This document shows positions 842-55,315 of a DNA stretch of 64,000 bases, in pieces. The translations under genes were made by a program, and so were the position numbers. Within the stretch, counting starts at the first letter, position 1; each line of letters opens with the position of its first letter. Location of the stretch: NCBI GenBank assembly GCA_964513645.1, contig CAZENF010000003.1:26425-90424 (forward strand), in the 5' to 3' direction. The notes under the pieces are model-generated. The model did no database searches, was not told the origin of the DNA, and saw only the letters and a program-made list of their open reading frames with translations. The DNA is from an uncultured Candidatus Saccharibacteria bacterium (lineage in GTDB: Bacteria > Patescibacteriota > Minisyncoccia > 2-02-FULL-40-12 > GWA2-44-9).

Positions 842-917
842 TAGATAGTAGTATGTAGTATGGTTAAGAAATCAAAAAATCTCCTTAGGGAGATTTTTGA
901 TTTGATTTCTTATAGTT

Positions 918-1073
918 AGAACGTAGCTGGCTTGGTCAAGATTAAGGCAAAAGCGAGGCTTGCGAGGAGTCATACTAATGTATGATGACGAGCAAATGTA
1001 GCTTTTAACGAAAATATTGGCCAAGAGCTTACCCGCCAAATCTTTGGGCGGGAGCGGCCAGCAAGTTATAACA
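918..1073 (+). repeat. ~155-nt structured repeat element, copy 1 (second copy at 19591..19753)
   Basis: 5' AGAACGYAGCTGGCTTGGYCAAGATTRAGGCARAAGCGAG and 3' AGCTTYTAACGAAAATATTGGCCAAGAGCYTACC...GAGCGGCCAGCAAGTTATAA are shared between copies. The terminal AGCTGGC/GCCAGC and CTTGGYCAAG/TTGGCCAAG segments are complementary. Two internal hairpins differ in sequence but keep pairing (tcatac-taat-gtatga vs ccatag-tataa-ctatgg; cccgcc..ggcggg vs ccgct..agcgg). Copy 1 ends 1 nt from the RNase J stop codon. Confidence 0.6.
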
Positions 1074-3032
1074 CTAAACCTCGATGACTACAGGGAGTAC
1101 CATCGGCCGCCTCTGTGTCTTCTGGAACAGGAACAACCCTATCTGGTTACGAAGCTGGTCTTTGAGATAAGCGAAATTGGGTTCGTACATTCTCTGGCTC
1201 TCGACTATTTTTCTAACCCTTTTGCGGACTTCCATCAACATTTCTTTATTCTCTTTGAGGTAAATAAATCCACGGGAAATAATATCGGGACTGGCCATCA
1301 GCTTGTGGCCCTGGGGCCCATGCTGAACTAAGGCAATGATGACAAACATCCCGTCCTCGGCCAATATCTGCCGGTCGCGTAAAACAACGTTGCCGATATC
1401 ACCGACGCCTAAGCCGTCGACGAAAACGTAATCATCCGGAGCTTTGTCACGGTCGAACCACCAGCGATCTTTTTCGATGTGAACGATAGAGCCGTTATCG
1501 GCGATTATGGTGTTCTCGGGCAGAACGCCTTCTTCCTGACCCATCATGCCGTGATTTATCATCATAGAGTATTGGCCGTGAATAGGGAAAAAGAATTTGG
1601 GTTTCATAAGTTTTAACATCTGGCGGAGGTCTTCCTTGTTGCCGTGTCCTCCGGCGTGAACGTCGAGCATCTTGTAGTTCAAAACCTTGGCGCCGTTACG
1701 GTAAAGCTGGTCCTTCAGGAACTGAACGTCTTTCTCGTTGCCCGGAATGACCGAGGATGAGAAAACTATCGTGTCGTTCTTGAGAATACGGATATATTTG
1801 TGTTCGCCGTTGGCGATACGCATTAAGACAGCGTTGCCTTCGCCTTGGGCGCCGGTAACAACCGCAACGACCTTGTTGCGGGGATAGTTGTCTATCTCGT
1901 CCATTGAGATCTGGGTATCGCGGGCCATTTTTATATAGCCGAGCTTTTTACATATCTCAACGTTGGTTTTCATAGAATAGCCGTCGAAGACAACCTTCTT
2001 GCCGTATCTTTCGGCGATGGTGATTATCTGTTGGACGCGGTTGATAAGGGAAGCAAAGGTGCCCAAAATAAGCATGCCGGTCGCTTCCGAAATTATTTTA
2101 TCGAGATTGTCGGTGATGGCCTGTTCGGACAAAGAGTGGCCTTCATTCTCGGCGCCGGTGGAGTCAGACATCAGAACCAGAACGCCTTCTTCTTTGACCA
2201 TGCGTTGCATTTCTTCTATGTCTGCGGGTTTGTCGTTGACGGGGGTTTCATCGAATTTAAAGTCCGAAGTATGGACGACGTTGCCGATGGGGGTTTTGAT
2301 GACTATTTCAAGGTCATCAGGTATTGAGTGGTTGATGCGGAGAACTTTTACCGATAATTTATCCGAAACTTTGATTACTTCACCGGGATTAACGGTCATT
2401 ATGTCCACGGGTTTGCGGTCTTTAAACTCATCAAGTCGTTTCATCAGTATCGCACGGGTGAGAGGCGCGGCATAAAAATCCGGTTCTCCGATCTTATCAA
2501 GCATGAACGGCAGGGCGCCGATGTGGTCCATGTGACCATGGGTAAAGAACATGGCTTTGACCATATGTTCTCTGCCTTCGAGATATCCCGGGTTAGGGAT
2601 GATGAAATCAATGCCCGGCATTTTTTCATCGCCGAAACGGACTCCGGCATCAATCAGTATTATCTCATCATCGTACTGAATCGCCGACATATTCCGGCCT
2701 ACCTCGCCTAAGCCGCCGAAATGGACGATCTTAAGACCGCCGGTATCAGTACCGATCTCTCTTTGCTGTTCCTTGCGGGCTGTTTCCCGCAGAACTCTGA
2801 CATGTCTGACAACCGGCTTCATCCAACGGTCGCGCTGCGAACGCTGGAGCTTTCTCATATCCTTTTTATTGGGGTCTCTCGGACTCTGGTTGTCAGAGGT
2901 GCCTTGTGCGCGGCCTTCTCCGGCGTGGCGGGTATGATCCGCCGGCTGGCGTATGTGCAGAGCGTTATGGCTCCGGCCGTCCTGGTTGGACGGACGTCTC
3001 GGATGAGACGGTTTATTTCTTTGTTCTATCAC
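1074..3032 (-). CDS. rnj: ribonuclease J (metallo-beta-lactamase / beta-CASP RNase) with ~100-aa basic N-terminal extension
   Basis: HGHMDHIGALP (HxHxDH) metallo-beta-lactamase motif, a GGLGEVGRNM N-terminal core, and beta-CASP and RNase J C-terminal regions over 652 aa. The true start may be internal, because the first ~100 aa are low-complexity and basic. Confidence 0.85.
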   Translation of the reverse strand: MIEQRNKPSHPRRPSNQDGRSHNALHIRQPADHTRHAGEGRAQGTSDNQSPRDPNKKDMRKLQRSQRDRWMKPVVRHVRVLRETARKEQQREIGTDTGGLKIVHFGGLGEVGRNMSAIQYDDEIILIDAGVRFGDEKMPGIDFIIPNPGYLEGREHMVKAMFFTHGHMDHIGALPFMLDKIGEPDFYAAPLTRAILMKRLDEFKDRKPVDIMTVNPGEVIKVSDKLSVKVLRINHSIPDDLEIVIKTPIGNVVHTSDFKFDETPVNDKPADIEEMQRMVKEEGVLVLMSDSTGAENEGHSLSEQAITDNLDKIISEATGMLILGTFASLINRVQQIITIAERYGKKVVFDGYSMKTNVEICKKLGYIKMARDTQISMDEIDNYPRNKVVAVVTGAQGEGNAVLMRIANGEHKYIRILKNDTIVFSSSVIPGNEKDVQFLKDQLYRNGAKVLNYKMLDVHAGGHGNKEDLRQMLKLMKPKFFFPIHGQYSMMINHGMMGQEEGVLPENTIIADNGSIVHIEKDRWWFDRDKAPDDYVFVDGLGVGDIGNVVLRDRQILAEDGMFVIIALVQHGPQGHKLMASPDIISRGFIYLKENKEMLMEVRKRVRKIVESQRMYEPNFAYLKDQLRNQIGLFLFQKTQRRPMVLPVVIEV

Positions 3033-3158
3033 TTTCTTCTTGCTACAAATTACGAATAATTAGAGATATACGAATATAAGAGTCGTATGTCTACGAGTAA
3101 TTAGTAGAGTAAATTAACAATGGGTGAGGTAAGCAAATAAAATCGCTTAATTTCCCTG

Positions 3159-3242
3159 TGGGCGAGAGAGGATTTGAACCTCCAAGGGATTGCTCCCATA
3201 CGCTTCTGAAGCGTACGTGTCTGCCAGTTTCACCACTCGCCC
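3159..3242 (-). tRNA. tRNA-Leu (anticodon CAG), long variable arm, CCA not encoded
   Basis: Reverse complement folds as a cloverleaf GGGCGAG...CTCGCCC-A with anticodon loop TTCAGAA, a long extra arm GGGAGCAATCCCTTGG, T-loop TTCAAAT and an A73 discriminator. Confidence 0.8.
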
Positions 3243-19161: not shown

Positions 19162-19215
19162 TTGACATTAATTTCGCAGCGGCTATAATTAGCACTTAGA
19201 CATTGGGACTGCTAA
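19162..19215 (+). promoter_or_regulatory. sigma70-type promoter (TTGACA-16-TATAAT) overlapping a CIRCE-like HrcA operator upstream of groES
   Basis: ttgaca at 19162-19167 and tataat at 19184-19189. TTAGCACTT-N9-GACTGCTAA at 19189-19215 matches the CIRCE consensus TTAGCACTC-N9-GAGTGCTAA with one mismatch per arm. Confidence 0.6.
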
Positions 19216-19288: not shown

Positions 19289-19573
19289 ATGATCAAACCA
19301 TTATCTGACCACATACTCCTTGAACCCTTAAAGGAAGAAAGAAAAAAGGGCGGCATTATCTTGCCGGACACAGTAGATAAGGAAAGGTCCGAAAAAGGTA
19401 AAGTTGTTGCGGTTGGTCCCGGCAAAATGAACAAAGAAGGCAAAAGGATTCCGATGGAGGTCAAAAAAGGCCAGACAGTATTATTTAAAAAATACAGCCC
19501 CGACGATATCAAAGTCGACGGCAAAGAATATTTAATTATCCGCGAGGAGGATGTCCTGGCGGTCTTGGACTAA
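19289..19573 (+). CDS. groES: co-chaperonin GroES
   Basis: 94 aa. [11 protein letters not shown]...GGIILPDT...GKVVAVGPG pattern. Confidence 0.9.
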
Positions 19574-19590
19574 ATTAACTTAAAATAATT

Positions 19591-21401
<1,811 letters not shown>

Positions 21402-25284: not shown

Positions 25285-25374
25285 TGGAGAGGTCGCATAG
25301 TGGTCTAGTGCGGTTGCTTGGAGAGCAACTGTAGGAGCAATCCTACCGCGAGTTCGAATCTCGCCCTCTCCGCC
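25285..25374 (+). tRNA. tRNA-Ser (anticodon GGA), CCA encoded
   Basis: GGAGAGG...CCTCTCC-G-CCA acceptor with G73, anticodon loop TTGGAGA, long variable arm TAGGAGCAATCCTA, T-loop TTCGAAT. Confidence 0.8.
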
Positions 25375-25516
25375 AAAATTGAAAATCGAAAATTGAAGCG
25401 TCCTCAATCGCATATTTCAAATGTCGAATCGGGGCAACAAAGGGTTGATGTTGTCGAACTTCAATTTTTTGCGAAGATTTATAATAAAGACATTAACTAC
25501 TTTATAAAATAGAGCT

Positions 25517-54702: not shown

Positions 54703-54844
54703 TCTTACTTGTAAAATAGCAATTTTATGGCTTTATCTCAACTCAAAACGGCATTGAAAAAACTCTCGGGAATTGATAAGATGAAATTGCACAACTGAAT
54801 AAAGCTCGTGAGAGCAGGACCTACAACCCTCGGTAACCATCCCG

Positions 54845-55315
54845 GTGGCATGGTCTCAAAGTCGGATAAGGCGCAGAGAACCCGTCATGTGGTTGCCTTA
54901 TCCGCCTTATCGGGAAACCGGTAAGTCCACGAAAGTGGAGACCCGTGGCGGGCTTTGTGCGTTCTGCGGACCGCCCGGGCGTTCGAGATTCAATCTCACG
55001 CCCATGAAAAAACTACCATCAAGAGACAAAGTATTTTGGAAAAACTTTTTCTACGCACTTTTGATATTTCTGTTTGCCGTAGTAATTTTCACTGTTGAAA
55101 ATAATGCCACTGGTGATGCTCCTACCCCTTTGAGATTCTCTGATTTCACTTCAACGCTTGGACTGGTTGGATTCTTTGCGATAATCGCATGCTGTTATTT
55201 CGTAGCCATGCGATTTGTTCGCTCAAAAAAGATAGACGAGTTTGTTGAAAAGAAGGGACTCACTTACCAAGCGTTCAGAGAAAAATACGGAGAGTTTTTG
55301 GACTACATAGATTGA
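54845..55315 (+). CDS. hypothetical membrane protein
   Basis: Two TM helices. The true start is probably internal (MKKLPSRDK). Confidence 0.3.
   Translation: MAWSQSRIRRREPVMWLPYPPYRETGKSTKVETRGGLCAFCGPPGRSRFNLTPMKKLPSRDKVFWKNFFYALLIFLFAVVIFTVENNATGDAPTPLRFSDFTSTLGLVGFFAIIACCYFVAMRFVRSKKIDEFVEKKGLTYQAFREKYGEFLDYID

Follow-up and report, generated by a model that had tools for sequence, protein, structure and literature searches.

What kind of element lies against the end of the RNase J gene and also occupies the spacer between groES and groEL in a 64,000-nt stretch of an uncultured Candidatus Saccharibacteria genome (assembly GCA_964513645.1, contig CAZENF010000003.1, positions 26,425 to 90,424; hereafter the window)? 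The original prediction, made from the letters alone, described a two-copy structured element with compensatory base changes and left two alternatives, a structured RNA or a mobile repeat resembling a MITE (miniature inverted-repeat transposable element). We confirm that the observation is real and beyond chance, and find that both copies belong to a new family of structured-repeat RNAs in bacteria of the candidate phyla radiation (CPR), which is uncatalogued in Rfam and undescribed in the literature searched. Both alternatives have proved correct in part, as the evidence fits their combination and neither one singly: MITE-like genomic behaviour occurs here together with strand-specific selection on the RNA. 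As to function, we favour (with moderate confidence) a structured intergenic repeat of the ERIC/Correia-like MITE type that is co-transcribed and probably affects the processing or translation initiation of the downstream gene.

Anatomy of the two copies

A covariance-model (CM) scan of the window with filters off recovered exactly two copies:

916..1072, + strand: copy 1, whole element, a closed three-way junction (CM and folding)
19589..19753, + strand: copy 2, whole element, filling the groES-groEL spacer (CM and folding)

The + strand scored 159.5 bits in copy 1 and 158.9 bits in copy 2, as compared to 16.9 and 18.9 bits on the - strand. In the alignment, homology between the copies is unbroken from TTAGAACG through AAGTTATAA; the copies lie where they had been predicted, except that the conserved stretch begins 2 nt further 5' (at 916 and 19589). 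The shared 5' and 3' blocks are exact, and two blocks of 23-25 nt each occur exactly twice in the window (0 of 100 shuffles). Folding of the + strand gave minimum free energies of -58.4 kcal/mol for copy 1 (z = -5.9) and -65.8 kcal/mol for copy 2 (z = -6.3), neither of which was equalled in 200 shuffles, while the - strand folded more weakly (-44.4 and -60.6 kcal/mol, respectively).

In the family consensus the three-way junction is closed by two helices, P0 (UUAGAAC/GUUAUAA) and P1 (GCUGG/CCAGC). The long arm begins with P2 (CUUGGYCAA/UUGGYCAAG), above which come a G.A mismatch and the 3-bp helix AUU/AAU; there follow an internal loop that is rich in purines and holds a single isolated G-C pair, then P3, a further short helix, a G.A module and finally a terminal hairpin. 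The remaining branch is a variable 3' hairpin (P4). The G.A module consists of two tandem sheared G.A pairs with 1-2 Watson-Crick pairs between them (found as GACGA/GAGGA, GAGGA/GACGA and GACUGA/GAAGGA). In the window copies these parts are placed as follows:

916..922, + strand: copy 1, P0 5' strand UUAGAAC, pairing with GUUAUAA at 1065-1071 with one G.A mismatch (folding and alignment)
926..930, + strand: copy 1, P1 5' strand GCUGG, pairing with CCAGC at 1058-1062
931..939, + strand: copy 1, P2 5' strand CUUGGUCAA, pairing with UUGGCCAAG at 1017-1025, U936.G1020 wobble included
940..949, + strand: copy 1, internal-loop module, 5' half GAUUAAGGCA, AGGC near-invariant
1006..1016, + strand: copy 1, internal-loop module, 3' half UAACGAAAAUA, AACGAA near-invariant
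941-943/1013-1015 and 946/1009: copy 1, pairs within the loop module (AUU/AAU and G946/C1009)
949..1006, + strand: copy 1, distal arm, with P3 (949-954/1001-1006) and UUGC/GCAA (960-963/992-995)
964-968/987-991, + strand: copy 1, double tandem G.A module, GAGGA/GACGA
969-975/980-986, + strand: copy 1, distal-arm hairpin
1027..1055, + strand: copy 1, P4, variable 3' hairpin, GCU..CCCGCC-loop-GGCGGG..AGC
19599-19603, + strand: copy 2, P1 5' strand, pairing with 19740-19744
19604-19612, + strand: copy 2, P2 5' strand, pairing with 19691-19699
19613..19622, + strand: copy 2, internal-loop module, 5' half GAUUGAGGCA, with the 3' half at 19680-19690
19622..19680, + strand: copy 2, distal arm, with P3 (19622-19627/19675-19680) and hairpin (19643-19649/19653-19659)
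19636-19641/19661-19666, + strand: copy 2, tandem G.A module, GACUGA/GAAGGA
19706..19739, + strand: copy 2, P4, variable 3' hairpin, long form with an internal bulge

Folding reproduced all of the pairings that had been proposed: the end pairing GCUGG/CCAGC, the long-range helix CUUGGYCAA/UUGGCCAAG (the copy 1 wobble being U936.G1020), the central hairpin (UCAUAC/GUAUGA in copy 1 versus CCAUAG/CUAUGG in copy 2) and the 3' hairpin (CCCGCC/GGCGGG versus CCGCU.../...AGCGG). Moreover, P3 holds a further compensated pair between the copies (AAAAGC/GCUUUU versus AGAAGC/GCUUCU, an A-U to G-C change).

The 3' side of the central arm carries an in-frame mini-ORF (open reading frame) of 8-9 codons (AUG/GUG...UAA; 975-1008 and 19657-19682 in the window), whose frame is conserved in most family members and missing from short variants, and which is probably a by-product of fixed helix lengths. 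A coding upstream ORF was considered and rejected: this arm frame is absent in the short variants, and the frame leading to the terminal UAA crosses the variable P4. The element holds no conserved ORF and is non-coding.

A family found in CPR bacteria

The name 'two-copy' is accurate for the window and fails outside it, where the family is large. A scan with 19-mers against one genome per GTDB species identified 9 true relatives, all in metagenome-assembled genomes (MAGs) of Patescibacteria (among them four Candidatus Yanofskybacteria, one Wildermuthbacteria and two unclassified), and a metagenome scan with a gapped pattern anchored on both loop strands retrieved 83 loci, mainly from Rifle and Hainich groundwater. 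Across the collected loci (designated by L numbers), a CM built from 35 full-length 'type A' sequences (R1) produced 105 matches in 81 non-redundant contexts, so that the search for additional copies in other genomes, proposed as a check, yielded at least 81 non-redundant members. Nearly all of them come from Patescibacteria MAGs (Yanofsky- and Wildermuthbacteria) and groundwater metagenomes, and the GroES and RNase J encoded in the window are 84-92% identical to Yanofskybacteria proteins; as far as sampled, the family is confined to Paceibacteria-type CPR bacteria (Yanofskybacteria, Wildermuthbacteria and their relatives). The elements are ~155-nt repeats, with lengths from ~130 to 220 nt, and up to 4 copies occur in 8 kb (L072); by extrapolation from 2 copies per 64 kb, the element may occupy tens of gene junctions per genome. 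Besides type A there are 'type B' relatives (with another P1, an additional small hairpin and another junction) and larger variants with bigger 3' domains. An association with phages was rejected, since the viral contigs gave no family match except a single chance 19-mer.

The element had not been recognised as any known riboswitch or ribozyme class, and Rfam 15 agrees. At gathering threshold, the whole window matched only LOOT and two tRNAs; each copy alone gave, at E<=10, only chance-level partial matches (SNORD44, 13.8 bits; L31 leader, 17.3 bits), and neither the larger variants nor the related loci matched any family. A full-text literature search did not find a description of the element. 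Among specific candidates, the small self-cleaving ribozymes (hammerhead, twister, twister-sister, pistol, hatchet and HDV-like) were rejected for want of a match at E<=10; the CUGA/UGAUGA strings of some copies, which recall a hammerhead core, are tandem G.A pairs instead. A tRNA-like element was likewise discarded: neither ARAGORN nor the Rfam tRNA model matches the copies, and in the window ARAGORN reported only tRNA-Leu (3158-3242) and tRNA-Ser (25286-25375), with no tRNA-like fold in the element.

Strand-specific selection on the fold

In the alignment of the 35 type A sequences, 98.5% of the cells are paired and double changes occur at 21 of the 43 pairs; shuffled controls reach 10.1 +/- 1.6 (none of 500 attaining the observed value) and slid registers 1-6. 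In the larger, model-fitted alignment (A3, 85 distinct sequences) double changes extend to 40 of the 43 pairs, versus 22.8 in shuffles. The closing helices take full part: P0 covaries family-wide (e.g. UAGGAC/GUCCUA and UAGAC/GUCUA), all five pairs of P1 show double changes in A3, and over the 85 sequences all 8 pairs of P0 and P1 covary. The central pair of the G.A module (column 51-78) swaps between C-G, G-C and U-A among the 35 sequences, and the AUU/AAU helix is replaced, fully compensated, by UCC/GGA in L111 and by UUC/GAA in copies that the search pattern had not selected. The best-conserved nucleotides are those of the internal loop and not the termini, and the AGGC/AACGAA loop core persists in 12 copies recovered independently of the search pattern. 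Furthermore, G.U exceeds A.C at paired columns by 82 to 7 in sense copies and by 51 to 8 in convergent ones. Because of this covariation, the conservation of the loop and the excess of G.U over A.C, the comparison clearly indicates that one strand is selected to fold as RNA, which bears out, with strong strand-specific support in a larger alignment, the proposal that the fold is under selection.

Hairpins carrying the two loop strands (GAUUGAGGCA / AACGAAAAUAUU) on unrelated helices were also observed in other (marine) metagenomes (L038 1723-1805; L057, - strand; L087 1978-2061). They do not have P0, P1 or P4, and the module formed by the loop strands may occur more widely than the element as a whole.

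Position relative to genes

Orientation could be evaluated in 62 full-length copies. In 37 of these a co-oriented ORF follows (sense copies), with its ATG -4 to +9 nt from the element's 3' end, the distance being -1 to +3 nt in 34 of the 37 (mode +1); in 21 of the 62 (34%) the neighbour is convergent, with -6 to +2 nt between its stop codon and the element's 3' end; and the remaining 4 are otherwise arranged, including L061, where GGAGG occurs in an 18-nt spacer. On the 5' side the element is not flush: distances to the neighbour reach ~200 nt. About 13 copies are preceded by a co-oriented stop codon 0-18 nt away and are therefore operon-internal, while about 6 have a divergent start 13-19 nt from their 5' side. 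The downstream genes identified by Pfam encode GroEL, DnaK, EF-G, NusG, HU, MreB, RuvA, TsaD and PriA, as well as MetK, GalT, a release factor, a sugar transferase and the ribosomal proteins L9, L11, L13, L27, L31 and S18; none of these Pfam-identified genes is preceded by a Shine-Dalgarno (SD) sequence at normal spacing.

Three conventional sources of initiation signals were sought and rejected. A hidden SD would have to be the purine-rich GGAG(R)G found 17-25 nt before the ATG, which is unconserved in type A copies. An internal promoter serving a leaderless gene would have to use the sole -10-like hexamer (TATAA, at the 3' end), which lies 1-3 nt from the ATG, as compared to the 6-11 nt that separate TATAAT and ATG in the clearly leaderless genes of the window, and no conserved -35 exists inside the element because P4 is variable. 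Finally, a fixed promoter upstream of the element is at odds with the absence of a sharp positional signal in 65 flanks and with the many copies that begin 0-18 nt past an upstream stop codon.

The two window copies exemplify the two main arrangements:

875..898, no strand assigned: bidirectional terminator-like hairpin, 17 nt upstream of copy 1
1074..3032, - strand: RNase J gene (Pfam), whose convergent stop (1074-1076) lies 2 nt past the copy 1 3' end
19162-19189, + strand: perfect sigma-70-type promoter, TTGACA-16-TATAAT, upstream of groES
19189-19215, + strand: CIRCE-like operator, an inverted repeat directly after the groES promoter
19289..19573, + strand: groES, its stop 15 nt before the copy 2 5' end
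19755..21401, + strand: groEL, its ATG 1 nt after the copy 2 3' end, with no SD at normal spacing

In the groES-groEL unit, a leader of ~75 nt without SD separates the CIRCE-like repeat from the groES ATG; the spacer between the two genes contains nothing promoter- or terminator-like, and the groES promoter is the only promoter-like site for the unit. Since one promoter and the CIRCE-like operator lie upstream and the spacer carries no signals, copy 2 is almost certainly transcribed within the groES-groEL mRNA, in sense orientation. Copy 1 does abut the RNase J stop as had been noted (2 nt intervene, and Pfam confirms the gene's identity). It stands between this stop and the 875-898 terminator, which serves in common RNase J and a + strand gene at 50-841, and is thus antisense in the RNase J 3' untranslated region (UTR). 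The RNA that is certain at this locus is the element's reverse complement, as RNase J 3' UTR; the + strand of copy 1 would be transcribed only through read-through, and copy 1 is probably a tolerated passenger.

A crude survey found an SD-like motif in ~8 of 51 long window ORFs, and many window ORFs have a TATAAT-like box 6-11 nt before the ATG (e.g. 7148-, 23170+, 39055+, 47249- and 16778+), pointing to frequent leaderless mRNAs in a genome whose starts appear to be mostly leaderless or SD-less.

Mobility-like behaviour

At orthologous sites the element is variably present. Among eight groES-groEL spacers it occurs in two, those of the window and of L111 (Yanofskybacteria 44_12b), the latter harboring a 130-nt form without the central hairpin; the other six spacers measure 1, 1, 26, 49, 70 and 129 nt, with unrelated AT-rich sequence, and the empty junctions read TAA-T-ATG. 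No full copy occurs in the RNase J 3' flank of four relatives (RNase J 81-92% identical). One relative whose RNase J is 81% identical has in this place, in the same orientation as copy 1 and flush with the RNase J stop, a 92-nt remnant that retains P0 and a P4-like hairpin and has lost the long arm (L119 3002-3093, - strand). Another carries in copy 1's slot, with the same terminator behind it, a closed structure of ~137 nt that is GC-rich, unrelated to the element and flush against the stop codon of RNase J (GCGAGGGCUGUUGCC...GGCAAUAGCCCUCGC; L117 3136-3290, - strand; -66 kcal/mol, z -3.1); this structure has no Rfam match and may represent another repeat family. A conserved adjacency to RNase J was rejected, as the neighbour is an FtsX-like gene at L005, L052 and L058 and yet another gene at L020 and L083.

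A 38-nt derivative (L081 2466-2503, + strand) consists only of P0, P1 and the AGAGCG junction; its neighbours are a YebC-like gene and ruvC, and it is still flush with the ATG of the latter. Inverted back-to-back pairs were found at L061 and L072, including in the rpsG-fusA spacer, which at L003 holds a single antisense copy. Two copies at the dnaB 3' end (L025 and L090) have flanks that are ~90% identical and P4 hairpins that are entirely different, and the L025 P4 recurs at L041; because of this pattern (near-identical flanks, different P4, the same P4 elsewhere) the comparison indicates an exchange of P4 between copies. Taken together, the family shows several of the features by which MITEs are recognised: it is small (such elements measure about 50-500 bp) and non-coding, has paired termini, is dispersed in either orientation and is present or absent at orthologous sites.

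On the opposite strand of the 5' flanks of L090, L025 and L055, the combination of P2, P1, P0 and flank reads TTGGCC-17 nt-TATAAT-8 nt-ATG, which could plausibly serve as an outward promoter for the divergent leaderless gene lying downstream of dnaB.

Possible function and alternative explanations

What sets the family apart is its strong strand-specific RNA constraint, its conserved loop and a 3' end that lies flush at essential genes without SD. On the favoured reading of a co-transcribed structured repeat, the element would be transcribed with the neighbouring genes, a trans-acting factor (a protein being the likeliest) would dock at its conserved loop, and a sense copy would delimit the next cistron on its 5' side. 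Expression of the SD-less gene that starts 0-3 nt past the element could then be accounted for by endonucleolytic processing or by stabilisation at the closing helix's base, or by reinitiation across this helix; alternatively, the closing helix might bring an upstream stop codon or the transcript 5' end beside the AUG.

Several observations weigh against this reading. Roughly a third of the copies are antisense (convergent) and yet show the same strand-specific features, which is difficult to square with a purely cis-acting sense role everywhere, and no promoter is visible at the copy 1 locus. On the side of RNA selection, the A3 alignment is model-fitted and biased towards the model structure, and the metagenome pattern demanded exact loop sequences, which leaves the invariance of the loop resting on the smaller unbiased set. 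On the side of mobility, the TA found on both flanks of many copies would suit a target-site duplication but, being self-complementary, may equally be a 2-bp extension of P0; no clean filled/empty pair occurs among the loci compared; and the ~0.7 Mb of collected loci contain none of the separated terminus pairs enclosing an insert that an autonomous insertion sequence would show.

If the RNA were above all regulatory, the family would be a cis-regulatory leader regulon, i.e. a riboswitch-like or protein-binding 5' leader or intercistronic aptamer exerting global housekeeping control: the closing helix covers ~17 nt before the AUG, a ligand or protein at the loop would stabilise P1/P0 and gate the ribosome, and convergent copies would control antisense transcripts. 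We consider this account possible, though unlikely. It is in agreement with the near-invariant internal-loop core set among covarying helices (an aptamer-like domain), with the closing-helix 3' strand abutting the ATG in 34 of 37 sense copies, with the recurrence of the same genes in different lineages and architectural types (mreB, hup, nusG, rplK, rpmA, rpmE, ruvA and the dnaB/ftsX 3' ends) and with the diversity of copies on single contigs (L028, L072), which points to old paralogues and no recent burst. It sits poorly, however, with downstream genes as heterogeneous as chaperones, ribosomal proteins, replication, cell shape and sugar metabolism, with 21 of 62 copies lacking a sense gene downstream, with its absence from 6 of 8 groES-groEL spacers and its decay or absence beside the RNase J of relatives, with an arm-less derivative that persists flush with an ATG (L081), and with the lack of a terminator or other recognisable expression platform. 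A different weighting of the same layout, which we put forward as a speculation and judge rather improbable, would make the element a MITE-spread, factor-binding 'punctuation' RNA between cistrons (or between the transcript 5' end and the first cistron), whose closing helix directs cleavage or ribosome transfer 0-3 nt from the AUG; operon-internal genes would thereby become leaderless-type messages in largely SD-less bacteria, and the element would be the bacterial equivalent of tRNA punctuation in mitochondria. In a related version the conserved loop would sense a global signal and gate about 20-40 housekeeping genes.

The opposite emphasis, a purely selfish MITE that plays no part for the host at the RNA level and whose fold and strand asymmetry are kept because the transposition machinery recognises the folded single strand or both termini, likewise strikes us as possible but unlikely. 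Its flushness would reflect insertion into very short spacers at TA sites, and any insertion at an empty TAA-T-ATG groES-groEL junction would be flush on both sides; paired termini with TA..TA flanks in many copies, both orientations, and the record of presence/absence, remnants, a termini-only derivative, inverted pairs and another closed element in a relative's slot all suit it. Yet conservation peaks in the mid-arm internal loop, while the sequence of P0/P1 is free as long as it pairs; RNA-protein platforms typically have such tandem G.A modules and conserved G.U pairs; the element is tolerated on the ATG of essential, highly expressed genes that have no other initiation signal; no transposase partner was found in the collected loci; and only the 3' side is flush, the 5' side being 0-200 nt from its neighbour. 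Should the copies instead be genes of a multi-copy small-RNA family, with their own promoters and maturation at the P0 base like tRNA genes, they would act in trans or in a ribonucleoprotein and downstream genes would ride on their transcription. The closed fold with paired ends and no 3' spacer, the AT-rich 5' flanks with -35/-10-like hexamers at some loci (L076, L019) and the identical strand-specific features of both orientation classes would be explained, but the 5' flanks have no positionally fixed promoter, ~13 copies follow a co-oriented stop within 0-18 nt, copy 2 has no promoter of its own, copy 1 is promoterless and 17 nt past a terminator, and the peripheral domains are highly variable, all of which makes this idea very unlikely. 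Least credible of all is a DNA-level recombination site, an attC-like folded single strand acted upon by a tyrosine recombinase. The ..AAC (5') and GTT.. (3') ends, the retention of structure over varying sequence and the stop codons overlapping the terminal box in the convergent class recall such sites; nevertheless, the RYYYAAC/GTTRRRY boxes (R''/R') are unmatched in most copies (AAC and GTT alone are conserved, typical ends being TTAGAAC and GTTATAA), the copies reside in housekeeping operons (rpsG-fusA, nusG-rplK, groES-groEL, yebC-ruvC) and not in cassette arrays, orientation is mixed, and the 95-nt arm with its conserved loop has no attC counterpart.

Comparison with known systems

The closest parallels to a co-transcribed structured repeat are ERIC and Correia elements. 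Like the present family, ERIC (enterobacterial repetitive intergenic consensus) elements are imperfect palindromes on the ~130-nt scale that lie in transcribed intergenic regions in either orientation; their copies number in the tens to hundreds, differ in presence between strains and come in long and short forms; Wilson and Sharp are said to have described, in 2006, compensatory changes in ERIC that suggest RNA-level selection. Unlike ERIC, which belong to another phylum and form a simple long hairpin, the element has a branched junction with an asymmetric loop and G.A modules, and its 3' end systematically abuts a start or stop codon. Correia repeat-enclosed elements, which are MITEs of Neisseria, resemble it in size (~100-200 bp), in paired termini with TA at both ends, in a frequent position directly upstream of genes and in co-transcription, and differ in that the element's conservation peaks in the internal loop instead of the terminal repeats and is accompanied by strong strand-specific covariation. 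Neither the ERIC core nor the Correia terminal repeat has a window match within 3 mismatches. Both are co-transcribed MITEs, substrates of RNase III or RNase E, that can change how neighbouring genes are expressed (PMC10969869): ERIC orientation affects mRNA fate via RNase E, Correia hairpins undergo RNase III cleavage at their terminal repeats, and promoters can be contributed by Correia elements (PMC10969869). The last property has a parallel in L090, where the reverse complement of the element's 5' end supplies the -35-like TTGGCC, 17 nt from the TATAAT of the flank.

Riboswitches and protein-binding leaders (T-box, ribosomal-protein leaders) share with the element a covarying structured domain with an invariant loop 5' of many genes, and a closing-helix 3' strand that overlaps the translation-initiation region; they differ from it in that the element's downstream genes are incoherent, a third of its copies have no sense gene, its occupancy is variable and it has no Rfam family. 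The layout of a folded RNA between cistrons, 0-3 nt from an AUG, is also that of mitochondrial tRNA punctuation and of plant-mitochondrial t-elements. Excision of mitochondrial tRNAs leaves leaderless mRNAs; the element is not tRNA-like, and the analogy is one of layout only. Integron attC sites are likewise imperfect palindromes with ..AAC/GTT.. ends, structure kept over sequence and stop codons overlapping the terminal box, whereas the element stands outside cassette arrays, in mixed orientation, with unmatched boxes and a large conserved arm.

CPR bacteria (Patescibacteria) account for a large share of bacterial diversity and have tiny, tightly packed genomes, and to our knowledge almost nothing has been established about their non-coding RNAs or gene expression. 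The present family is absent from Rfam and enjoys unusually strong comparative support, and its junctions are often found directly before the genes for GroEL, DnaK, EF-G, NusG and ribosomal proteins, where initiation signals of any other kind are not visible. Were the RNA to define the 5' ends of mRNAs or to gate initiation, it would constitute a lineage-specific layer of expression and offer a handle on operon-internal translation in bacteria rich in leaderless messages; if it is only selfish, it would still be a clear MITE-like element under RNA-type structural selection in CPR genomes, and a marker for strain typing and for assembly problems.

Additional observations

At L007, a release-factor gene that appeared to be split by the element was rejected as such, since the upstream ORF is rpmE and not the missing N terminus; the release factor following the element (1078-1233, - strand) has 247 aa with a PCRF match from profile position 100, and seems to be without an N-terminal domain. 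In a close relative, an ORF with a faint LAGLIDADG_3 match lies just upstream of RNase J (L116 301-963, + strand). Elsewhere in the window, LOOT RNA (RF03000) was identified at 54818-54939 (+ strand; 62.6 bits versus a gathering threshold of 46.4), and the program-made ORF that overlaps it (54887-55315) is probably spurious.

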